Positions 3,336 to 61,600 of a stretch of 64,000 nt of DNA are shown here, piece after piece. Every line of letters begins with the position of its first letter. The stretch's first letter is position 1. The stretch comes from Podarcis gaigeae. Taxonomy: Eukaryota. The notes below the pieces were generated by a model. The model ran no database searches. It saw nothing but the letters and a program-made list of their open reading frames with translations, and was not told the DNA's origin. The DNA is taken from the NCBI GenBank assembly GCA_964106915.2, contig OZ066923.1. One strand, given 5' to 3'. A program made the position numbers and the translations under genes.

Positions 3336-4046
3336 TTCTAGGGCATCTGAACATTTTCCGAAGCAAGACACCCAATTTGGATAGGAAGATTTTCCAGAAT
3401 TATTTTCAGAATGTCCACAGCTAACCAGAAGACATAACCTGACCATACCATGCCTTTCTTTAATACTCAATATTTACAATAGAATCTGTTGTACTTTGAC
3501 TTGGTGTGTTTGACCAGGCTTAATCCCTAAAAATCGTCTTATGAACATCTTTAATAATAACAACTATATAAAAATCATGAGGGTCAAAGCTTCCCAAGGC
3601 ATTGCATTGCTAAATCTTTGTTTTATACAGTCAGTAATCCAAACCCCCAAGGGAGCTGGTTGTTACCTGATGCAACTCCTGAACTCCCTTCCCCCGCCAA
3701 GCACATATCGAGGCTTGAGGATTTTTAGCAAGACAGGCAGCTGCATTCAAACAAAGGATTTGGAATGCACGTAATTGACACTGAAGAGGATGTAAACAAA
3801 TTACAGTAAATAATTTAATGTTTCTAGAGACAGCATTGAACAAAAAACCTCTATTCGTATTTTACAGCTAAGCATTGTCTTAGAATTCAACTTTTAGCAA
3901 AAATAAATGGCGAGGGAAGAGATTACTCCAGAAACTATTGTAGCAGGATGGTTCAAGTAGTGCAGATTAATTCCAGGAACAGGCATCTTAAGATATTCAT
4001 TTTACCTCCAGAAGCAAAAATGAAAAAAGCAACATGCTATCATTAA

Positions 4047-4560
4047 GAGCAATGACAAACCTAGACAGCATCTTAAAAAGCAGAGACATCACCTTGCCGA
4101 CAAAGGTCCGTATTGTTAAAGCTATGGTTTTCCCAGTAGTGACGTATGGAACTGAGAGCTGGACCATAAAGAAGGCTGATTGCCGAAGAATTGATGCTTT
4201 TGAATTATGGTGCTGGAGGAGACTCTTGAGAGTCCCATGGACTGCAAGAAGATCAAACGCATCCATTCTGAAGGAAACCAACCCTGAGTGCTCACTGGAA
4301 GGACAGATCGTGAAGCTGAGGCTCTAATACTTTGGCCACCTCATGAGAAGAGAAGACTCCCTGGAAAAGACCCTGATGCTGGGAAAGATTGAGGGCACAA
4401 GGAGAAAGGGACGACAGAGGACGAGATGGCTGGACAGTGTTCTCTAAGCTACCAGCATGAGTTTGACCAAACTGCGGGAGGCAGTGGAAAACAGGAGTGC
4501 CTGGCGTGCTCTGGTCCATGGGGTCACAAAGAGTCAGATACGACTAAACAATAACAACAA
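4047..4560 (+). mobile_element. BovB (RTE clade) LINE, 5'-truncated 3' end
   Basis: AMTNLDSILKSRDITLPTKVRIVKAMVFPVVTYGTESWTIKKADCRRIDAFELWCWRRLLRVPWTARRSN is the BovB ORF C-terminus. In-frame stop at 4325-4327 and a (CAA)n-like tail. Confidence 0.93.
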
Positions 4561-9414: not shown

Positions 9415-11619
9415 TATTACATTGCCCCCTAAATCTCTCTGCTTCCCCAATCATTATCAGTTGCTCAGTCTGACTAGTAGTGCTGCTCCTGAGACCAACC
9501 AGTTCTCAGACACAGTGTGAAGAACTGCTGCTGCAGGTAAACAAATGAGACAGTAGCCTATGTATCCAAGGAGCATGGCAACCAGTGACAAACAGCAGTT
9601 GACAGAGAATGCGCATGGCAATGCGGCTATGAATCAGGACTAGATTCCTAGGCAAGCTAGGGGTAATACTGTTTACTACTTGCATTGGGCAAATTAAATT
9701 TGCATACCTGTGCCCATAGCAATCTGTGCAGAGTACAAGGCTACTTTTCAATGTGCACTATTAGAATATCCATTAACTTGCTTCTAGGTCATTTAAAAAA
9801 TCTTCAAAATATATTTGTTTGCAGGGTGCTAAGGAGATGTCATGATACTCAAAATATGTTTTGCTCTAACGAAAATGACAATTCTAAGATACACTTGAAT
9901 ATTCTCCACTAAATATGGCCCTTCTAAAATGAGATTTGAGTATTAAGTGTCAGCTGCAAGTTACATGGACATTAGTTATTTATTAAAAGCATAATGACTA
10001 GGATAAATTATTTATCCCTCTTTATTCTCAAGGTAATGTTAACCTAGCGTAACAGAACTCTAGCACTAGTAAATGGCCTTGGGGGGTTGAATAGACAAAG
10101 GACTTAAGGGGGGGAGGGGACAGATTAAGGGTGATGTGACCATGCACAGAAAACAAGAAACATATATAAACTGCCAGAAACATTAAAAAGCACACAATTT
10201 TGTTTTAATTTCTGCACACCATCCCCCTTGTTTCATGTATAATAGATTAAACTTATGCAGTAATGACATTCATATGCATGCATTATCAACCTTTCATCTA
10301 CGTTAGAAGCAATTTTCAAAGAACCATACATTATTTCTTTTTTTATTTTTAATGCCCTACCGTTTATGAACCAAGCAGACAAGGAAGAGCTTGTACAAAT
10401 GAGAGAGACAAGACCTATCAAAATAAAAGTTGCTTTCACAACTTTTTCAAACCAAACACTGCTTCAGAAAATAGTTGTTTTGTTCCCCCACAAGCCACCA
10501 TCCAGAACTTTTAACATTAACTGTGAAGGAACAGAGACTCCATTTATCCTTCCTTCAACTTAACCTCAATTTCATAATACTGTTACCTTAAATCTGCAGT
10601 ACTTACAGTATTGGTAATCTCCAGTTACAAGGTATTAGCATGCTATTGAAAGTAGGTCTCCTATTGATAAATTGTTCTAGACAACACAATGGACACTTTA
10701 ATTTTAAGAACAACGGACACATTCTGCTTTACATCCAGCAGAACTGTCAAGTTCGTATCAAAACTTTAAAGACAATGTTTTAATGAAAAACGTCAATGTT
10801 TAACTCCAAGAACAAAGTGTTACTGTCAACTCTTCATGAAGAGTAATTCCAATCCATTCTCCATGTTAATTTTTAAAGCAACGATTACCAGCACCTTCCC
10901 ATTCCCTTCATGAAATTTGCCTCTTAAATTCATTTAACTTTGTTTCTTATGCAAAGCTTTCTCTATCATCCTCCCAAATTCTAGTCCCCCTTCAGTCAAG
11001 ATCAAGTTCAGAATAAGTTGTGCTAATTAAACTTGCATATATTGCCCTTGTATAATTTATTCTGCTTTCAAGATGGAATATAGGGGATGACAGCTGGGAA
11101 CAGCATTAAATTATGTAGCCGGCAGAGCCAGGAAAGCAGGGCATAGAAACAACAAACGCTCTTGGAGCAGACGACTGGCTAGCCAGACATCATTATGGCT
11201 GCCACAGGGTTGCAAACATTACTCTGCACGTTTGCAGGCTTTCCAACTTGCAAGTGCTGGCTTTCTGAAAAACAACAGAAAGACTGACTGTGCAAAATGT
11301 GGCCGTCTGCAGACGGCCGGGCCACAGGCGCTGAGTGCTGGGAACCTCGTAGGGTGTCTAGAATGAATGCAAAGCCACTTTAAAAAGTGTCAAGGGTTTA
11401 AAAACCATAGATCCTGGGTGTCCAACCCTCTCTTAAGAAACACCGTTAAATGCAGTGCTATCTAGGAAGCTGCATCAGGTTACCCCCCCCCCACCTCCAT
11501 CAAATACTATCTTCATTCACCCCTTCTCGCATCTGAACTGGTGCCATCGGTATATGGTGGTTAGACACCCTTCCTTGATGAATGCACTAAGGTGGGGGAG
11601 GAGAGAAGGAGCCGCTCTT

Positions 11620-12330
11620 GAGCGCATTTGGGCAAGGTGACTCCGTCGAGTTTGAGGGCTGGAAGTGATCTAGGAGGCGCACCCCGCGTGGAAAGAGAGG
11701 GGTGCAGAACGGCGCCTCTCCGCCATGGGTGCCTAGCAAAACACAGCAGGGACGGAGGTGGCGGCGGGGAAGGGAAGGGCCTCCCCTCCAGGCGTCCCGG
11801 CTGCTCGGGAGCTGCGTGTTTCGGGTGCTCCGCGGAGCCCCGGCCTGGGGACAGGAGGAGTCCCCGACGGGGTGGGAGGCGAGAAGGTGCCACAGGTGGG
11901 CCTGGGCGCCCCGGAGAGCCAGAGTTGCAGAGAAGGACAGAAAAGGCTTACCTGCCAAGCCGAGTGAGACGCTTCCCTGCCAAAGGCGGCGGCGGCTCCC
12001 TGCGCTGCTCCCTCTTCCTTCGGCGGCTGCAGCCAGTCTCTGATAACAAGAGGGCAAGCGGAGAGGCGGGGAGCCGCCGCGCATGCGCCCAAGGGGACGC
12101 GGCGCCCTCAGGCCGGGCGGAACTCCAGTAATCAGATGCCAGGTAAGAAGCAGCGGCCCGCTGGGTAGGAGGAGGAGGAGGTCCAGGTAGGCGGCGCCAG
12201 AGGGCTCCGCGGGCTCCTCCTGGAGGCTGCGTCCCGTCACTTCAACGCCTCTCCGGGCCCCAATCATGGGGAAAAAGAAGAGAGGGGCGGAAACTCTGCA
12301 AAGCTCTCCCTTTGCACTCAGCCGGACAGC
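11620..12330. promoter_or_regulatory. CpG-island promoter, probably RAB3IP (minus strand) with a non-coding first exon ending at 11952
   Basis: GC- and CpG-rich island in AT-rich DNA. NRF1-like CGCGCATGCGC at about 12078-12088, CCAAT at about 12260, GC box GGGGCGG at 12284-12290. Minus-strand donor CAG|GTAAGC at 11952/11951. Gene identity is inferred only from the mammalian order RAB3IP-BEST3-LRRC10-CCT2; no RAB3IP coding exon was found in the window. Confidence 0.7.
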
Positions 12331-13279
12331 TTGCAAATTGCTGTAGCTTCAGCGGTCTGGTTTCTAGCACTTATAAAGGGATAAGTGGAGTGGTCTGGGC
12401 TCCTCCTGCCTCGTGGTCCCCTGAAATTTGAGCATTGATCAGGAGGGAAGCGCTGACTAACTGCAACAAATCCTTGGAGGGGATTGTTTTTTTTAATTCA
12501 ATAAAGTTGTGGTATTTTATTATGAAAGTTAATTAAAGCTGTGTTTTAACCAAGGTACACTGAGAACTTAAAATTGTTAGTTTTGCAAAGCAGAATGTGC
12601 TAACCTTGAAAGATAACAGTGCAGCCAAGACCCAGAAATTCTTATAGCCAAGAAATATATTAGCAACTACAGTACTTAGAAGGAAATGCTACTTTTAATT
12701 AAAAGGGGTGTGTGTGTGTGAATGGTTTTCCTTGTCAAGGCTGAAGCTGGGGTGCAATCAAGGGGTGAAGATCAAGCTATACCTTTTAATTCTGAAATGT
12801 AAAATTCATTTTTTTTAAATATATTTTTTATTTGTGGTATTTCTATCAACTGCCCAATTACACAGTCCTCTGCATGAGGATATAAAGATAAAATGCTAAA
12901 ACACAATATGAAATATATCATTTTCCCCTGGTTTCTCTCTCTTCTGTTTCCATTGTTTTATTGTTGGCTTCTTGATTTAATGAATTTGGTATTGTTTTGT
13001 GTCATTGTTTTATCTTAAGATACTCTAAAGCCATCATGAGTTGACATTTTGTCTAGAAAAGTGGGATATAAATTTCAATGTAAATCGTAAGATTTATTTA
13101 AGTATATTTAAGACTATGCCTAGCAGAAGGAGCAAATCCTTTGCATGCTTATTCAGAAGCAAGCCCAATTGAGTACTCATTTATTTAACCATTCAATTGA
13201 TTTATTAGCCACCATATAACAGAAGGTCTCTGGGTGGCCTGCAAAGGAAAACAATAATTTTAAAAATCACATTAGGTTT

Positions 13280-25700: not shown

Positions 25701-28700
25701 CCAGTTTGCCCAATAGCCAAGGATGGTGGTAGTTGGAGTCCAGCAACCTCTGGAGGACCACAGGTTTCCCATTCTGGTTTATTCACTTCTTAGGGCTGAG
25801 GTGGAACTGGAGACTGAATAAAGACCAAACCCTAACAGCCCAACTTGGAACTGCTCTCCCACTGCCATATCACATTTGTATCATCTTGCATGAGAATGTA
25901 TTGCACTGTAGGTGGCCTACAGAACNNNNNNNNNNNNNNNNNNNNNNNNNNNNNNNNNNNNNNNNNNNNNNNNNNNNNNNNNNNNNNNNNNNNNNNNNNN
26001 NNNNNNNNNNNNNNNNNNNNNNNNNNNNNNNNNNNNNNNNNNNNNNNNNNNNNNNNNNNNNNNNNNNNNNNNNCAGTAATTATATCCGTAATAGGGACAC
26101 AGGTGGTGCTGTGGTCTAAAACACTGAGCCTCTTGGGCTTGCTGATTTGAAAGTCGGCAGTTCAAATCCATGTGACAGGGTAAGCTCCTGTTGCTCTGTT
26201 CCAGCTCCTGCCAACCTAGCAGTTCGAAAGCAGTGCAAGTAGATAAATAGATACCACTGCAGTGGGAAGGTAAACAGCATTTCTATGCACTCTAGCTTCC
26301 GTCATGGTGTTCCGTTGCGCCAGAAGCGGCTTAGTCATGCTGGCTACGTGACCCAGAAAGCTATCTGTGGACAAACGCCAGCTCCCTCAGCCTGAAAGTG
26401 AGATGAGCGCTGCACTCCATAGTTGCCTTTGACTGGACTTAACCATCCAGGGGTCCTTTACCTTTTACCTTTGCCTTATTATATCCATAGCAGTAGTTTA
26501 ATGTGGCCTTAATTCATTTCAGGTTGTAACACTTGCTGTCTACACCTTCTTCTTCACGTGCCTGATAGGACGTCAATTTTTGGACCCTGAACAAAACTAT
26601 CCAGGTCATGATTTAGATCTTTACATTCCTATCTTCACATTGTTACAGTTTTTCTTCTATGCAGGATGGCTAAAGGTAAATCGCTACTATAGTTTTCCAG
26701 TGTGTTCGGAATTTTCTTGTGATTTGTTTGTTCAGATTCCATGAGTAAGATTTATTCCAGCCAAGTCAATGGAAGTAAAGGGCCCCTTTAAAAAGCTATC
26801 TATACTTTTATTGCTCCTCTCCTTCCCTCCCCCCCCCCCATTCCTCTCTCCCATTCCCTTGCAAATCTGCTCTGGAAAATCTGCTCTGGAAAGTCTGTCC
26901 TGTCACTCAGATAGAAGTCCATTGTGGTCACACGAGGTCACCACTGGACACAGCCCACTGTGTTTCATGAAGCTCAGCCAACAGCATCATATCTGGCATC
27001 CATGTCTCATAGTCCAAGCTAAGATAAAGTAACAATGATATTCAGACTGCTTTTTTCTATTAAAAAAATATTCTATAAAGCTTAAAAGCACACTGGCTAT
27101 GCTTCTCAGGCTTGCAATCTGAATAGACGCAATTACAAAGTAAAGGGGATATAGAGAGGGACACTTAGCAATTATTCAGCATACAGCATCACATAGAGAT
27201 TTAGGCAGTGCTTTTTTCTGGGGGGACGCAGGGGTACACATACCCCGAAACATTTTGTGAATCTAAGTTTGGCCTCATTGAGGGGCAGTATTTCAATATG
27301 AGTAGGAAAATGAGAGTACCCCTAAACATTTTTTTAAGGAAAAAAAAGCACGGGATTTAGGTAATACTAAAAATATATAGCTATCCAATGTGCTATGTTT
27401 CTTACAATGATCTGAACACATTCACACTGCTGATAGTGCATACCGCAGAAGGTTTGGCATTTACGATGACACTGCAAGCAGCATTTCTGGATCACAAACT
27501 TCTTACAAACTCCAAGTATTATGCCAGTGGCGTAGCGTGGGGGGTGCAGGGGGGGCCGGCTGCACCGGGCGCAACATCTGGGGGGGGCGCACTCGCACTA
27601 ACTAACTAGTGGAAGAGACTCGAGTGCTAAAATCCACGGGTTAGGGGGCGCAAATTACTTGCCTTGCCCCGGGTGCTGACAACCCACGCTACGTCACTGT
27701 ATTATGCACAGCATCCTGCCCACACCAATGTGTCGAGGCACATGTAGCTCAACTTTGCAAACAGCCCCGCTCATCAGTGCAGGTTTTGGCAGTTTTATAC
27801 ATAGCCTACTATAAATTGCTGCAAGTGTTATTCTGTCTCGAAATCCCACTGAGAAGGCTATGTATGTGGTGTATAGAGGAATCTGCCAGCCTTGGATTTC
27901 ACAGATCACTTCATCAACTGTAGTAGTGGGGGGTGGGGGGGTTTTGAGGCTGCCTTTAAAGGGCAGGAGCCCACTCAGTGGTGCTTACAAGGTAAAAACA
28001 AAATAGTACAGAGAGAGACAGAGAGATATGAGTGAGTAGCCAGAGCTTCCTGCTTCTACCATAGTGGATATCACAGATGAAGAGGGAAGTTGCTCTCCAA
28101 TCATTGTCCTACAATGTACAGTGGTACCTTTGTTCTCAAACTTAATCCATTCCGGAAGTCCGTTCCAAAACCAAAGCACGCTTTCCCATAGAAAGTAATG
28201 CAAAACGGATTAATCCGTACCAGACTTTTAAAAACAACCCCTAAAACAGCAATTTAACATGAATTTTACTACCTAACAAGACCATTGATCCATAAAATGA
28301 AAGCAATAATCAATGCACTGTACTTTAAAATAAATAAGACAGTATTGTAGATGATAAAAATAAAATAAAAAGTATTTCTTACTTGCACTGATGATAGTCA
28401 TTGTTTGGATGGGGGGCTTTTATCCATTTCCACACTCACACATTCAATCAATCAGTAGCTGGACTGGGTGCCACACAGTCACAAAAACAATTTAACCAAA
28501 AAATCCTCAAAAACAAAAATGCAAAATAAACAGCAAAAACAAAAGCGCCAATTACAGTGGTACCTTGGTTCTCAAGCATAATCCGTTCCAGAAGTCTGTT
28601 TGACTTCCAAAATGTTCAGAAACCAAGGCATGGCTTCTGATTGGTGCAGGAGCCCCGGAAACAATAGCCAACAGCCAAATTGGACGTTCAGCTTCTGAAA

Positions 28701-41014: not shown

Positions 41015-52871
<11,857 letters not shown>

Positions 52872-52920
52872 GGTTTCAGCTGGAAGTGGAAATAAAGCTG
52901 GCTTTTCTTCTCTCTATCTC

Positions 52921-52929
52921 TTTTATATA
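52921..52929 (-). promoter_or_regulatory. TATA box of nothepsin
   Basis: TATATAAAA on the minus strand, 50 nt upstream of the ATG at 52871. Confidence 0.7.
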
Positions 52930-53687
52930 CTTTGCTGGATCACAACCAGCTGTTTGCGGGGTCAGTCAATGACTGCAGGTCAGTTGCTTGGCAGGACATT
53001 TGTAATGTGCTGGACAAGGACCCGCCAATTTGTGTAAATACTGCAATCTGTTACAACATGGATGGGGAACCGGTGGCCCTCAGGTTGTTGTTGGACTCCA
53101 ACTCCCATCAACCCCAGCCAGCATCGCCAATAGCCAGGGATGCTGGGAGTTGGAGTTCAGCGACATCTAGGGGACCACATGTTCCCCACATCTGCATTAG
53201 AACACTCCAACAAGGGAGTGATGGAGGCAGGTAGTAGCAGTGCATGTGGTAGGGCTTGACGCTGGTGTGGTTGCTTACCTGAATGGGGCTGAAGTGCCAA
53301 TCAGGGCGAGACTGTGCAGTTGCACTGACAGGAATGCTGGACCGGCAGGGATGCTCCCACTGGTGCAACCACCCCACCCCAACCTCGCCACTATTGCCCT
53401 GCCCCAACGCTGTCCAAATAAGGAGCAGTGACAGAGGTGGATTTAGGGAAGCGTGACTGGTTCACCCGCACTGGTGAGAGGGCGCTGCAGGGGGGCTGAA
53501 ACAATGACTTATAATGAAAGTCTAGAGATGTGGATGGGGGTGTCAAATTTTGTTGTGTTGCGCAGGGCGCCGTTGAAGTTTGAAAGTCTGCGTCTAGTAG
53601 ACGACATTGTAAGGAGGTTGGCTGTGTCTCACTACACATGCCACTACCTCTTAAGAATAATGCGTCTTTTTCAGTGTGGACTAAGTA

Positions 53688-53916
53688 CAGTGGTGCCTCA
53701 GGTTACATACCCTGCAGGTTACAGACTCCACTAACCCATAAATAGTACCTCAGGTTAAGAACTTTGCTTAAGGATGAGAACAGAAATCACGCGGCGGCGG
53801 CGCGGCAGCAGCAGCAGGAGGCCCCATTAGCTAAAGCGGTGCTTCAGGTTAAGAACAGTTTCAGGTTAAGAACGGACCTCCAGAATGAATTAAATATGCA
53901 ATCGGAGGTACCACTG
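53688..53916. mobile_element. Tigger-like MITE
   Basis: Same family as 15469. Confidence 0.88.
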
Positions 53917-55341
53917 TAGTTATAAACCAGGTCTTACCATGTCCCCAGGTTTTCATAGGTGAACCTATGCAATTCAAACCCCTATAGAAAGATGAAGGGT
54001 AAATGGCCTCATCTGAAAGATTCAGCACCATAACAAGCAATTTGACCTTTCCTTATGTCACCTTTTCTCATTAGCTATTACTGAATTACTTACATTTAAC
54101 CTCTCCCCAAGGAGGCAGGTGCAAAGCTTGCACTCTAAGGCTGTGTCGGCACTATATACCTTTAAACCCCACTTGAAGCACATTCTTTCCCTCGAAGGAT
54201 TCTGGTTGCTGTAGTTTACCCCTCGGGGAGCTATAATTCCCAGCACCTCATAAAGAAACGACAGAGTCCAGAATTCATGGAGAGAGAGAAGGTGCTTCAA
54301 AGGTACAGTCTGATTGCAATCCAATTCATCAGTTCAAGTTATTCCTACAAAATGTATCGGAGATGGGGAATCTCAATCCTGGGGGCAACATTCACCCCTC
54401 CAGATTAGCTGTCTCCAGTTTGCACCTCTTCCTCCTCAGCCACACGGCCTCTCCCCAGGCCATGCCTCTCACTAGCCCTCTTTTGCACCCTCCTGGAGCT
54501 CAAGTGCGTCCTTGAACTCTGGCAATGCCTCTTCCTGACCTCTGGTTCTCCCCATCATTGGCATGTGGCCCCCAGAAGGCTGCTTGGAGAGGAATGTGGC
54601 CCTCTGAAAAAGCTTCCCTACTCCTGACATATATAACATGGAGCTGAGTAATCCTTGTGTCAAAAACTGTTGCTCAATGGCTCTGGCCTTCAGCTTGCAC
54701 ATCTAATGCAAGCAGCTTTGCAAAGACTTCAGGGCAAGACCAGTGAGTAACGGAGACTATACAGGCTCATCCCTTAGGGAAAATGGCTCACTGCCCCACC
54801 AAACCCAAACTTGGCCAGCTGCTTGCTTACAACTATAGCCCAAGGGGTAGCCTTGCCTATCGCTTCCCTCCTCCTCCCCAGTTTCTCTGTTCCCATTGTA
54901 AAACTCAGCAGGGACAAGGATGGGGTCCAAACGAATTTAGTTGGCTCTGTTTGTCATTGGCTGTGGCTCCACTTCCTGTTGGCCTCCCTGCCTTGCACTC
55001 CAGCAGTCCCAATGGGCACCAGTGGATGGAGTCACTGCAGGACCATTTGGGGACACAACCCGAGCTGAATCAGGATTCAGTCAACACTCACATCTGATCA
55101 CATGCAGAGGGCTACGTGAATCAGCTCTTGTTCTCTTGCAGACAAAGGTGCAACTACTGTCTGTCTCAAGACTTTCACCTCTGAGAGGTACAGCATCCTA
55201 CATTAACTGGTCTTCACCCCCCATCACTCATTAAGGTCCTCAAAAGTCCAGACTCTGGCTATTTTTTCATTGCCTTGATCTCATTAGCTCATTGCAAGGA
55301 GACTTTGGCTTGCCAACATAGTCACAAGGTGCAGCAATCTA

Positions 55342-55356
55342 AGGTCATTGTGATCT
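55342..55356. promoter_or_regulatory. Near-consensus estrogen response element
   Basis: AGGTCA-TTG-TGATCT against the consensus AGGTCAnnnTGACCT (1 mismatch), followed by TGATAA and an HNF1-like site. Confidence 0.55.
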
Positions 55357-56294
55357 GCATTGATAAGACTAGATTAATAGTTAAACTGTGAACCAGAGTT
55401 TTTACCCCATAATATATTTAAGTAAGTCCTAAATATGTTCCTTAACAACAAATAAATGTAAATAAGCATTCTGCATCCAGAAATAGCAAAATGTCATATA
55501 AATCAATGTCCAATTTAAGCAGTAGGATTTGCCTAATTGTGCCATGAAATTTGAAACCATCCATTCAGAGTCAAATTAGATGTTAAAAGTGTCTTTGAAT
55601 CCCATGCTTAAGACTCCCACATATTTTTTAACCAAAAGCAGCCAATGGAGTCCAATTCAGTTCAGGTTTGTGGTACAGGTGTAGGGTGGTTTACATCAGG
55701 TATACTAAAACAGCCGCACCTATCCAGAACGGGAATCTGTCACAGTTTAGGGCCAACAAGAATTGCTTGGCTGATGGTTGAACCCTGACTGAAGGCTATG
55801 GCTGAGAGCCCTTTAGCTTGTGCCAGAGGGCATAATATGTTACTTGCAATGAATAAACACTTACAGTAGATGACATTTACATAAATGAGTACTGAACATG
55901 CCTCTCTCTCATGTTACTAGCAAGTGACTATAGCATAAAGCACCATTAGAGCCGAGCCTTTAGAGTAGAGCATGCTAAGGGGAACATTGGGACTGTTTTG
56001 GAAAATATGTCTGATTAACCACTGTGCAATCTCAGAACTTCACCTCGGTGTTTTCTGCTGCTTTTGCGCACGAGAGCTATTCCAAGGCAATGCCTGTATT
56101 TCTCATCAGCAGACACTCATTCAGTTATCAGGAACATTTCAGGGCTCTTGAGATTCATGATTGTTGCTATGTGGACCATATATATTGCAGCAAGGAGGAG
56201 GGAACAGCACACAAAATAGAAGCCAGGCAGCTTCCCTGCTCCATAAGCCTGATTCACTAGCAAAGAACCAATGTAATTTTCCAAAGTTGTTAGG

Positions 56295-57125
56295 ATGGGC
56301 AACGCTTTCCGAACAGTCATTGCTTTCTTCCCATCAGATGCCTGCCAGAAATACATCCTGGGAGACCTTGAAGAGATGCCAATTGATAAAATGTTGGATC
56401 TGAGCAGCAGGCAGGTGAGGAGGTTCCCGCTGCACGTTTGTTCTTTCAGGGAACTGGTCAAATTGTACCTGAGCGACAACAATCTGAATCATCTGCCCTC
56501 TGAGCTAGAACAGCTGCAGAACCTACAGATCTTGGCACTGGATTTCAACAATTTCCAAACGCTTCCCCCGGTGGTGTGCACCTTGAAGCAGCTGTGTATC
56601 CTTTACCTGGGCAACAACAGACTCGGAGACCTGCCTGTGGAGCTGCGCCAGCTGCAGAACCTGAAGACGCTCTGGATTGAGTCCAACTGTTTGTATCACC
56701 TGCCCAACGTGGTGTGCGAGTTGAAGCAACTCAAGACGCTGCATGCCGGCTCCAATGCGCTGCACTCCCTGCCTGCCCAGCTGTGGTACCTGAAGGACCT
56801 GCGCAGCATCTGGCTCTCAGGCAACCTGCTGCCTGAATTCCCCCCCGTGTTGCTCCACATGCCATTCCTGGAAATTATCGACGTCGACCGCAACGTCATC
56901 ACTTACTTCCCCAGTCTCATGCACCTGAGCAGCTTGAAGCTGGTGATCTATGACCACAACCCCTGCAGAAACGCACCCAAGGTAGCCAAGGGGGTGCATA
57001 GGGTTGGGAGGTGGTCTGAGGAAAGCCCCGAACCTAGGAAACGCTCTGGTATGGATAGGGACAAAGGATCTGAGGACATCGACTCTATTCTCCCCCCTCC
57101 AGGCCATCTCAGTCTAGCCGAGTGA
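56295..57125 (+). CDS. LRRC10: Leucine-rich repeat-containing protein 10 (cardiac), single coding exon, 276 aa
   Basis: Intronless ORF starting MGNAFRTVIAFFPSDACQKYILGDLEEMPIDKMLDLS. Tandem LxxLxLxxNxL repeats and VIYDHNPCRNAPKVAKGVHRVGRW. Adjacent to CCT2. Confidence 0.96.
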   Translation: MGNAFRTVIAFFPSDACQKYILGDLEEMPIDKMLDLSSRQVRRFPLHVCSFRELVKLYLSDNNLNHLPSELEQLQNLQILALDFNNFQTLPPVVCTLKQLCILYLGNNRLGDLPVELRQLQNLKTLWIESNCLYHLPNVVCELKQLKTLHAGSNALHSLPAQLWYLKDLRSIWLSGNLLPEFPPVLLHMPFLEIIDVDRNVITYFPSLMHLSSLKLVIYDHNPCRNAPKVAKGVHRVGRWSEESPEPRKRSGMDRDKGSEDIDSILPPPGHLSLAE

Positions 57126-58577
57126 CAAAAATTTCCACTAGAACTTGTAAGTTTGCCGCAGGAGCCTTCTCAGACAGGGTGTTCATCACCAGATAAAGAT
57201 GAGAGTATCTGGACTGTGTTTTCACAGACTGTATAATCCAGTGTAAAGCTGCATGTGTTCGATTTCACTTGATTTCTACAGTATTGTGTGCATGCCCAGC
57301 TTGGTGAGTAATTTAAATATCTAGAATTAGCAAGATAAACTCTGAACTGTGACAGCCAGCTAACGTACCCCTTCTGATACCTGCAGCTCTTCTACAGAAT
57401 TCAGATGGAATAAAACCTAGAAACAAATCTTTGAGAAGGGGGAAAGGAATCCATTTAAAGATAAAAATGCAGGTGCCTTGCTTCTGTAATATTAAAACCA
57501 ATGCTACAGCACTAGCTCTGTGGTATTAAAGAAATTGTGTGTATTTTGAAGGCAGTTTGAAGATATTTCATCCTGCAAATGTATCTAGTACAGCCAAACA
57601 GGGAAATTCTTTGCATTTATCCTGATTTTGTGTGTAAATGAGAACTTTTAAGTTGGGGTTCACCAGTTACAAATCCAACTACATGGAGTCTATCTGCATA
57701 CCAGCTTGAGCGCTGCTCAGGGAAATGTAGAATGTGTAGAGTTAGGAGAGATAGGACCCCTAGCATAGTGTTCAGCACCATCAGTCTCTGGGGAAGCCAT
57801 GACTGATAGAAAAGCAAGATTTATAGATATGCCATTAGAATAGTTTGTTTCCATTTAACTATTTAACTCGGTGTTATCCAATTAATGAAGTACTGCAGAC
57901 CCCATTTTTCAAGTCAAGCTAATGACCCTCCTACTTTTGAAAATGTAGCTATTTCAGAACTCTGAAAGTAGACTACAGCCTACAAAAGCTCATGCCACAA
58001 GACATGCGGTCATAGTTAGAGTACCACAGAACTCTATCATTTGCTGCAACCAGCTAATACGGTTACTTCTTCCAGATTTTTTTTTTAACATGCCAACTAG
58101 AAATTAACTTTTTTTTGTCTTGGGGAAGTTATGTACTTGAACCTCCAATTCCAGCAAAAGCAGTGAGGTTTCAGATTACTTCCTCCTTGCCGAGATGTGA
58201 TAAACACACAACTAGCTAAGGTTTAGTGGCGTGTATTATCTTCATGAAATGTTTAATAAAAGGATCACACAGGATTTTTAAATACTAGCAGTAAACTTTG
58301 CTTTCATGATCAGCCACCTGCATATTATCTGAATTGTGCTCTCACTATTTCACACGTATGCATTCAAAGGTCTTTCCAATAAAAAGCGCAAACTCCAGTA
58401 CTATACCAAGGTAAATAGAAAGTCAAAACAGATTTGAAACTTTTATTATAGGGTACTACAAAGAGGATGGTGGGGAAGTATAGATGTTATACAATAAGAA
58501 TGAATTGGTCTTTTTGAAACAATATAATTTAAACCAACAAAAGAATGATCACATGCCAAGGATCGATATTCCATCCC

Positions 58578-58583
58578 TTTATT
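58578..58583 (-). terminator. Candidate poly(A) signal of CCT2
   Basis: AATAAA 75 nt after the CCT2 stop; a second one at about 58442-58447. Confidence 0.55.
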
Positions 58584-58657
58584 CATCAAATCGGTCTGAA
58601 GCGCACAACGTATTTTGCAAACTTCTGGTCCACGTGTTTTTACTGACCATGGAATAC

Positions 58658-58688
58658 TCAACACGGATAACGATCTGGTACTCTTTTC
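58658..58688 (-). CDS. CCT2: CCT2 last coding exon
   Basis: ttcttctttcag|G AAA AGA GTA CCA GAT CGT TAT CCG TGT TGA; AATAAA 75 nt downstream. Confidence 0.9.
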
Positions 58689-61600
58689 CTGAAAGAAGAA
58701 TCAGAATTCAGTACACGCAAATGTTGGGAGGAAAGAAGAGTCTCCAAGTTCATTGGAAGCCTAGAATGTAAGAACCTAAAAGTGTTTGTACATGTTTGTT
58801 GTTTAGTTCATCAGCAATCAGTCCACTCTTAATTGCCCAGGTAATCCCAGAGTAAGTTACAATGATATTTCAATTCATAACAGTAGCAGGCAGAGATAAC
58901 TACAAGTCAAGAGGGTAGGACCACTGTTCGGCCCACTACCACAGATGCCTAAAAGAGAGTTGGCACCAGCTGTATCTGAGGGGGAGGGAATTCGACAGAC
59001 AACCAACCCCAAGAAAGTCCTCCCTCCTGTGCTGTTTATCAGTCAATTAAAAGGACCTCCCCACAGATCTTCATGTATGAGCTCCCCACATGTTGGATCC
59101 CTCTGGCCAAGCCCTTCTGATTATTTTGAATCAGCCAAAAAAGGCAAGTGCCGAGAGGGTATGTTTCCAGTCCCGCTGCTTCAACTCCCTTGGCCACATC
59201 CTCAGGCCTCAAAACCTGAAACGGATCCTACTAGACCAAATAGGACACTGATAGTACCTTGATGGGAGTATATCCTATCTTAGCCAGTAGCATCAAATGT
59301 ACAACCGTAACAAAATTTCATAAACATAGAAGCATACCTATTATAAGGAAATTATAGTTCAAATCAATTGTTTTTCTGATAAAGATTGATTACGGCATTG
59401 TCTCGCAAGAACTGGGAAAGCTTTGGGTTTTACCTTGGAGCTGCTTTAATAATATCATCGACACGGAGAATCACCTCTGCAGCTTCAGCAGCACTCAGCA
59501 AAACTTGCCGTTTCACTTGAAAGCTTTCCACCACTCCCAGAGTTGCCATGTCTGCAATGGTAGCCTCCTTCATGTCTTCAAGAGATTAAAAAAAAAAGTT
59601 TATCAGTGTTAATAAGGCAAACATCCCATTTCCATAGCCGTTTTGCATTTTCTATCTTGGCACTGTTAAAATGATACTGATTTTAATTAAAGGTCTACAC
59701 ATTTTCAATTGGAATTTGCATTTAGTGAAATTCAGTCTTATGCCAGATTTTAATTTTCACTGCTGCTGTTGAATGTAAAGCACCCCAAAGCAGCTTCTAT
59801 TCCCACTGCAAGTATTTATTAGTCTTCGTTACACAAAGGTGTATTTTTTAAAAATAAAACATACAAACTATATATAAAAATCCTTACCAAGTCCATACGT
59901 GGTTTTCCCTTCAATATGAGCAGCTCGAAGCTGGGAAACCAAATCTGCACTGTCATAGCCAGCATTATCAGCAATGATAGTTGGGAGCTAACAAAATAAA
60001 GCAGGCTTGTTAGACCATTTGGCAAAGAACAAACCTGCAAACTACGTGCCAGTTGCAAAAATAAATAACAATAACACACATATAAGCGCTATTAGTTACT
60101 ACTGTACTATTGCACTATCCTTACTCAAAATATGTGTATCCTTGATGCAGAATCTGAATTTGTCAATACTAACAATCTTTGGCAATCCCTCCCATTCATT
60201 GAAGAGAAACAAGTTTACAAGAGAATCCCAGATCTCTGCTTAGGTCAGGGCTAGGGAACCATTATCCCTGACCACCAGCCACGGCTGATGGAAGGTGGAC
60301 TCCAACAACATCTGGAGTGCCACAGTCCTCCATTCCTGGTTCAAGGGAATCCTGCTACAATTGGTTTGGAGAGAGAGAAAGCCAACCCATGTTTTAGAAG
60401 TGGTTAGAAATAACACTATGTAAAGTCAGCCAAGCCAAAAGAAACATGGGAAAGGGCCTAGAGGAAGATAGGTAATGTTACTGTTCCTTGGTTAACAAGG
60501 GCACAATTTGGTTGCATGAGCCACAAACCTGAAAACTACCATCTCAAAAGACTTTGCAATGACCAACAAGCAGTAAATGTCGTTCGGGTGCTCAGCCTCC
60601 TCCTCATAATTACTAGCTTTCCAGAGCACTATGCTTCATTATACAGGTAGTAAAGAGAACCAAACACTAGTTTACCGTGCTCAAGGCCTTAGCGAAAGAC
60701 TCCATTGCTACGGATTCCTTGCCTGGTGTCCTCTTTGCAAGCTCCCAGACAGCATTAGCCATTAACATCTCTGAGCAGCCTATGTGTTAGGAAACAAACA
60801 GACACCTTGTAACTAACCTGAGCAAGTATTAAAGTTAAACTTTCAATTGCTGGAGTTAAAATAAGATCACTGTATATTTACCTCCACCATACACCGTTCT
60901 AGTATCTTTTACAGTCTGGGCAAGAACACAGAGTGCATCATGCAGAGATCTTTCCGCTTCATCTATGATCTGTTGTGTTGCACCACGCAGAACTACGGTG
61001 CATGCTTCACCTAAAAGGTATAAAAAGGTAAGGAAAAGCAATAAAAATATTTCCAACAAAATCCTGTCTCCTACATATAAAAGGACATTGAACCTGCTGC
61101 CCTGCTGTCTATCAAGCCAAATCCTAAAGCCGCATAGTGTTGACTGGTTGTTATTATTATTATTAATTATTGTTAAAATATGTGTACCACCCTTCATCTG
61201 CAGATCTCAGGGCAGTTCACTATATAAAAGCATAAAAACAAGAAACAGCAATAAACCAATAACCCCCCTCCCCCCACTAGATGAACTGAGCTACCAGAGA
61301 TGATTGCTCTGTAGCTGCTCTTGTTGCATATTCAGGCATTTCCCTTTGCATACTTGCAAAAGGTGTTATTCTGTCTCAAGGTGGTAGAGGTGTTGGGGTC
61401 ATTGCTCTTTCCATGTGTGGGTAACATATGAGCACTGCTGCTAACCACCATCCCTGATAGTTTCCAGGGACGTGCCTGTTGTTTTTAAAATTTTCAGACT
61501 GTGGGTATCTTCTCCTCCCTTCCTTGGGTAAAGCATGAATGCAAGGTGGCAGCTGCTCCACAGACACAGCAGTGGACGGTAGCTGGTGCATATGATTGTT

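Follow-up and report, generated by a model that had tools for sequence, protein, structure and literature searches.

A candidate estrogen-responsive liver enhancer between nothepsin and LRRC10 in Podarcis gaigeae

Estrogen-regulated liver genes and nothepsin

Vertebrate liver cis-regulatory modules generically combine sites for FOXA, HNF6, C/EBP, HNF4 and HNF1, and the Xenopus vitellogenin B1 gene carries a promoter-proximal pair of imperfect estrogen response elements (EREs). For chicken vitellogenin II, Davis and Burch are said to have described in 1996 a GATA-dependent estrogen response unit in which GATA and the estrogen receptor (ER) act in synergy. The initial annotation of the locus analyzed here had taken as established that EREs of estrogen-induced yolk-protein genes work together with liver-enriched factors, and passages on vitellogenin in two papers bear this out: an ERE combined with liver-factor sites is a known regulatory design of vitellogenin genes, GATA, HNF3 and C/EBP cooperate with ER at these genes, and ER acts with CTF-1, HNF3/FOXA and C/EBP at the Xenopus vitellogenin B1 promoter (PMC4227248, PMC8398935).

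In egg-laying vertebrates, nothepsin is described as one of the liver genes that respond most strongly to estrogen, with an induction by estradiol of more than 4,475-fold in trout liver and 86.8-fold in zebrafish males, and 35-fold higher levels in laying hens; among mammals only monotremes have kept it, and little is understood of its role (passages from PMC3495648, PMC2678157, PMC4556936, PMC6839265 and PMC3547925, cited here as a group). The nothepsin transcript has already been proposed as a biomarker in trout, and it is this transcript that the idea of a xenoestrogen biomarker fits, not the DNA element for which the initial annotation had put it forward.

The response of chicken nothepsin reportedly runs mainly via ER-beta, and early work on Podarcis nothepsin is said to exist. 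We take the chicken gene ENSGALG00000010018 to be nothepsin, from its identifier and from its place 2,029 bp after CCT2. In estradiol-treated chicken liver this gene, labeled "uncharacterised", rises from 55 to 578 FPKM, and the strongest motif in ER-alpha peaks of chicken liver is a forkhead motif, according to passages of the same study (PMC8190866). The 113 ER-alpha/ERE direct targets given there do not include the presumed nothepsin orthologue; they also lack APOV1, a validated target by the study's own account (PMC8190866), so the list is insensitive and the negative for chicken nothepsin is weak. Should LRRC10 lie within the 2,029 bp that separate the end of chicken CCT2 from the presumed nothepsin gene, a spacer of about 1 kb would remain. 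Our literature search, with most subscription journals outside it, found no description of nothepsin cis-regulation.

The nothepsin locus and its ERE-like palindrome

The window, a stretch of 64,000 nucleotides from contig OZ066923.1 of the Podarcis gaigeae assembly GCA_964106915.2, carries BEST3 (+), nothepsin (−), LRRC10 (+) and CCT2 (−) in this order. BEST3 and CCT2 are presumed names that we drew from Pfam families, synteny and general knowledge, and the presumed name LRRC10 draws in addition on the label in the initial annotation. BEST3, the convergent neighbor of nothepsin, contains an assembly gap (an N run at about 25930-26080; 148 N in the window), and a CpG island at 11501-12500 upstream of it is probably the promoter of a neighboring gene, which by synteny we would guess to be RAB3IP. 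A fragment at 3992-4327, presumably RTE/BovB-like, resembles the final part of a LINE reverse-transcriptase frame. The small final exon of CCT2 was not found in the window.

The nothepsin (cathepsin E-A-like) gene, the presumed target of the element, spans 41015..52871 on the minus strand and encodes 403 aa in nine coding exons (exons 1-5: 52871-52816, 51693-51516, 48298-48181, 46726-46608 and 46106-45907; exons 6-9: 43792-43670, 42781-42637, 41928-41830 and 41188-41015). It is intact, with GT-AG introns, both catalytic D-T/S-G motifs, the Pfam Asp and A1 propeptide domains and no break, and 396 of 400 aligned residues are identical to the cathepsin E-A-like protein of Podarcis muralis. The acceptor of exon 5 (46107-46125) has a poor pyrimidine tract before its AG; the exon still matches the P. 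muralis protein fully. In a tree of 19 rows, 18 of them hand-picked from the 120 matches listed, the gene groups with named nothepsins and apart from cathepsin E (100/100), which supports the identity given to it in the initial annotation. This A1 aspartic protease of the nothepsin clade lies in a CCT2-LRRC10-BEST3 neighborhood that is old: according to passages of PMC13389413, nots adjoins cct2 in zebrafish, and other fish have best3, lrrc10 and cct2 as markers of this interval. A snailfish 'cathepsin E' record (P0067) also carries a TCP-1 chaperonin domain, probably the product of a gene prediction that ran the neighboring cct2 and nots together. The gene next to the element is intact, and liver induction is known from its trout, zebrafish and chicken orthologues.

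The element lies within the 3.4-kb head-to-head spacer between nothepsin and LRRC10, the latter a single open reading frame (56295..57125, plus strand; 276 aa with leucine-rich repeats) that is the nearer gene and the rival target and has its own GATA site at 56125-56130. The ERE-like site is separated by 2,471 bp from the start codon of nothepsin (52871, minus strand) and by 939 bp from that of LRRC10 (56295), in agreement with the 2.47 and 0.94 kb first annotated; the element is therefore 2.6 times closer to LRRC10. Copies of interspersed repeats, with no strand assigned, occupy 53046-53229, 53674-53927 and 54134-54366 on the nothepsin side, so that the distance to nothepsin was probably once shorter. 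The proximal promoter of nothepsin (52920..53040, minus strand) comprises a TATA box (52920-52930), two RGGTCA half-sites (52959-52964 and 52977-52982) that stand 12 bp apart just upstream of it, FOXA motifs on both sides of the pair (52951-52957 and 53031-53040), and a 13-bp palindrome with a 1-bp spacer (52963-52975). The window has 49 RGGTCA half-sites and just 2 non-overlapping pairs whose members stand within 30 bp, this one included, and judging from these motifs the two half-sites and two FOXA sites could take estrogen input themselves.

The candidate ERE itself (AGGTCATTGTGATCT, read as AGGTCA-ttg-TGATCT; 55342..55356, no strand assigned) is an imperfect palindrome with one of 12 positions mismatched, identified by a match scan and graded by published position tolerances (PMC6542189). 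As the best ERE of the window it has held its place: it is the only 15-bp match with at most one mismatch in 64 kb, where three others have two. The count of 11 of 12 consensus positions was likewise right, but the mismatch falls at core position 9, within the least tolerated pair. Passages of PMC6542189 give the tolerance for one-variant EREs over 157 ER ChIP experiments as 3-8 > 1-10 > 5-6 > 4-7 > 2-9, so that the variant lies outside the well-tolerated positions (3-8 or 1-10) and ranks last in this order, which is a preference and no absolute requirement. The same source defines the ERE class as a GGTCA-nnn-TGACC palindrome with a 3-bp spacer and at most two variants, to which the candidate conforms with one variant in 10 core positions and a 3-bp spacer; it reports that one-variant EREs, taken as a class, bind ER well above background and that ER prefers A/T flanks, which the candidate has, and its argument is that ER works with the two sides of an element and not with lone half-sites (PMC6542189). 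The TTG spacer is only half a fit to CNG, the preferred spacer in a passage of PMC8190866. At position 9 the base is the one found there in glucocorticoid/androgen elements, and the right half is one change away from an ERE half and one from a glucocorticoid/androgen half; a glucocorticoid/androgen reading of the whole site was ruled out by 3 mismatches in 12.

Markov models of orders 1-5 predict 0.11-0.21 matches per 64 kb to the 15-bp form with at most one of 12 positions mismatched, and a probability of 0.10-0.19 for at least one in the window. For the 13-bp core with at most one of 10 mismatched, simulation gives 1.0-1.8 per window against one seen, and mouse genome counts in a passage of PMC6542189 correspond to about 1.8 per 64 kb, so the 13-bp match is at chance level. 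The background-rate check that the initial annotation had proposed for the whole window does not make the ERE by itself convincing. Within the 10-kb stretch around the nothepsin start, expectations are 0.017-0.032 (15-bp), 0.05-0.10 (R/Y flanks) and 0.16-0.28 (13-bp). Judged on its letters, the candidate ERE is weak by itself; as a weak ERE dependent on its neighbors, it looks like part of an estrogen response unit, but also like a chance match.

There is no better ERE elsewhere near nothepsin, the intronic sites at 46436 and 48369 having two core mismatches and low liver scores. Structured RNA was rejected with zero Rfam matches at gathering score over 52800-59500. The initial annotation had placed the site outside any recognized repeat, and we indeed found 55056-56300 to be without a match to the rest of the window by self-BLAST and nhmmer, by which a repeat present as a single copy in the window would escape. 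Copies of an interspersed repeat of about 370 bp, which we take to be a Sauria SINE, lie at 235, 5393, 8522 and 38552, and every one of them contains an ERE-like site of 13 bp whose variants occupy the best tolerated positions, 3 and 10; this repeat is a possible source of ER sites in lacertids.

Liver-factor motifs around the candidate ERE

The ERE-like, TGATAA, HNF1-like and GCAAT strings first annotated were all found where they had been placed. A full GATA site (TGATAAGA, 55361..55368, plus strand), with TGATAA at 55361-55366, lies 4 bp from the ERE; WGATAR occurs 139 times in the window and 3 times in the 3.4-kb spacer, and lies within 45 bp of 16% of random anchors. An HNF1-like palindrome of moderate match (55372..55386, no strand assigned) is centered 30 bp from the ERE center. 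Its core at 55373-55385, ATTAATAGTTAAA, has the two mismatches claimed when measured against the consensus of the initial annotation (9 such sites in the window) but three to the strict GTTAATNATTAAC (32 sites). To the left, a weak C/EBP-like site (55329..55338, unstranded) includes the GCAAT at 55334-55338 and carries little evidential weight: the window holds 167 copies of GCAAT and 106 loose C/EBP matches, and the half-site, which had been offered as support, was dropped as uninformative. Absent from the initial annotation were two tandem forkhead (FOXA/HNF3) motifs on the minus strand (55448..55464), the second of which (55455-55464) is strong, and an HNF6/ONECUT-like motif at 55498..55510 (minus strand). 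Two adjacent C/EBP-like motifs at 55528..55545 (unstranded) form the right edge of the module, and no HNF4 match was found within it at 2 mismatches.

Six liver motif classes were scored in each 200-bp segment of the 64 kb, the ERE being masked, with consensus strings from general knowledge as matrices and not database matrices; the classes were picked after the FOXA- and HNF6-like strings had been noticed, so the test is not blind. The segment 55346-55545 ranked first in the 64 kb with a score of 7.48, made up by GATA, HNF1, FOXA, HNF6 and C/EBP-like sites, against 5.95 for the runner-up. Under alternative consensus sets its score was reached by 0.3-1.2% of anchors at 200 bp, and by 1.4-2.9% with sets from which GATA and HNF1 were removed. 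None of 60 column-shuffled decoy sets attained the observed rank (4 of 60 at the 5% level), and in dinucleotide shuffles of the two 185-bp flanks four liver sets reached the observed score in 4, 32, 6 and 3 of 1000 cases, whereas a cardiac set did so in 292 of 1000. The candidate has the top liver score of the 18 ERE-like sites outside repeats (23 in all, with 5 in repeats dropped).

Scale matters to this result: the cluster is clear at 200-300 bp and mostly not at 100 bp, where four of five motif sets find it unremarkable (6-8%; 29-79% without GATA and HNF1), and at the 60-bp scale of the initial annotation its value is 2.2%. Clustering of liver motifs was upheld, but the 45-bp module first described became one of about 200 bp with FOXA and HNF6 added. 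Within the bounds of a non-blind test on consensus-string matrices, the motif context of a hepatic estrogen response unit is above background here. The motifs, their clustering above background and the gene models are seen in the DNA itself, and the position of the candidate ERE 2.5 kb from a gene with estrogen-induced orthologues, together with the top liver cluster, lifts it above chance. The result is a credible candidate enhancer, larger than the one originally described.

Competing explanations and a proposed mechanism

On balance, we lean towards reading 55329-55545 as a hepatic enhancer built like an estrogen response unit, one that has a part in nothepsin induction; by analogy with other species, in which nothepsin is induced by estrogen and ER is combined with GATA, HNF3 and C/EBP, it would probably be an ordinary estrogen-driven enhancer such as vitellogenin genes are known to have. 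We infer every binding event and the target gene of the module. In hepatocytes, FOXA, GATA4/6, HNF6, C/EBP and HNF1 would bind the AT-rich right part and hold the module open. With the rise of estradiol during vitellogenesis in females, an ER dimer would settle on the imperfect palindrome, its weak binding stabilized by GATA 4 bp away and by HNF1 three helical turns away; the module might then reach across about 2.4 kb to the TATA promoter of nothepsin, where the promoter's own FOXA sites and half-sites would receive it, and raise transcription. The nearer LRRC10 promoter is proposed to remain silent in liver, where the cardiac factors on which it depends would be missing. The initial annotation had called the element "the switch" that couples nothepsin to vitellogenesis; liver motifs are indeed enriched in the flank and cardiac motifs are not, but the half-sites and FOXA sites of the proximal promoter and the absence from the chicken list make that term an overstatement.

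The same observations would suit a genuine nothepsin liver enhancer that is independent of hormone, its ERE-like 15-mer incidental or minor and estrogen acting by way of the proximal half-sites, of another site or of an intermediate factor that ER induces. In its favor, the liver cluster stays significant once the ERE is left out, the mismatch sits at a poorly tolerated position, the RGGTCA pair of the promoter is one of only two within 30 bp and is flanked by FOXA, and the chicken ER-alpha list is negative; yet this reading requires as an accident that the best liver cluster has the best ERE of the 64 kb at its edge, EREs with one mismatch are collectively bound well above background, and the relevant passages of PMC6542189 favor ER use of both element sides over lone half-sites. 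We regard it as unlikely. Chance, meaning frequent short motifs that fell together in an AT-rich part of the spacer and regulate nothing, is a poorer explanation again: 10-19% of random windows contain a 15-bp match of such quality, both GATA and GCAAT are frequent, the flank to the right of the ERE is 29% GC, and the site was picked post hoc with motif classes that were not blind, but composition-preserving shuffles and decoy motifs fail to reproduce the score, and the estrogen-induced liver gene next door is independent information.

We consider it improbable that the site is instead a cardiac element of LRRC10, with GATA4 at 55361 and possibly an ERR monomer on AAGGTCA. The LRRC10 start codon is only 0.94 kb away and the GATA site at 55361 is present; passages of the literature describe NKX2-5, GATA4, SRF and MEF2C as controlling LRRC10 through conserved near-promoter elements (PMC11110685, PMC4971440) and cardiac enhancers as co-occupied by ERR-gamma and GATA4 (PMC9008061). 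The cardiac motif score is ordinary, however, being reached at 30-51% of anchors as well as in the shuffles given above; the accompanying NKX2-5, SRF and MEF2 motifs are not above background, with no exact NKX2-5, CArG, MEF2, TBX5 or TEAD consensus near the ERE, and the second half-site, HNF1 and HNF6 are left unexplained. The extended half-site of ERR is TNAAGGTCA, from which the extension here (CTAAGGTCA) departs by one mismatch; the exact form is absent from 55250-55450 and occurs once in the whole window. The text and 6 supplements of PMC9008061, as far as covered, contain no mention of LRRC10 as an ERR/GATA4 target. A bolder reading, to which we would give little credence, has the module in dual use within a head-to-head spacer of ancient origin, with ER and GATA/FOXA/HNF1 firing towards nothepsin in liver and spilling over to the neighbors CCT2 and BEST3 while GATA and, on the palindrome, ER or ERR feed LRRC10 in heart. 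Were this true, cardiac LRRC10, a modulator of the L-type calcium current, would be estrogen-sensitive in breeding females, and therian mammals, having lost nothepsin, would keep the GATA part and lose the ERE.

Signals have been described for both outer neighbors. In passages of PMC8190866, CCT2 (chr1 35.46-35.49 Mb) is up 2.1-fold with estradiol in chicken, and no other CCT subunit appears among the 962 liver genes that respond to estradiol; in great tit liver before laying, BEST3 rises with CTSEAL, and the authors suggest co-regulation (passage of PMC6720064). Read-through or unrelated regulation could explain the signals of both genes.

The preferred reading, an estrogen-responsive liver enhancer of nothepsin, relies on a textbook mechanism, so the gain would be incremental. 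If it is real, the 220-bp fragment would nevertheless be a concrete and cheap-to-test handle on direct ER targeting of squamate nothepsin and a small natural example of an enhancer that bypasses a nearer promoter; Podarcis is described as already in use to monitor soil estrogens.

Comparison with described regulatory units

Compared with the cardiac elements of mammalian Lrrc10, as described in passages of PMC11110685 and PMC4971440, the candidate lies on the same genomic side of LRRC10 and has a GATA site, but no exact NKX2-5, CArG or MEF2 consensus is adjacent. It resembles the generic liver module in its length of about 200 bp and in four to five of the motif classes, and differs from it in having no good HNF4 match and an ERE at one edge. 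Like the Xenopus vitellogenin B1 promoter, it places an ER site with FOXA and C/EBP motifs before a gene of hepatic vitellogenesis, although with one imperfect ERE about 2.4 kb upstream in place of a promoter-proximal pair. With the reported chicken vitellogenin II unit it shares an ERE beside a GATA site upstream of a liver gene; the target in chicken is an estrogen-induced yolk gene, whereas here it would be a protease gene, and the candidate adds HNF1-like and HNF6-like sites and sits in a spacer that it has in common with a heart gene.
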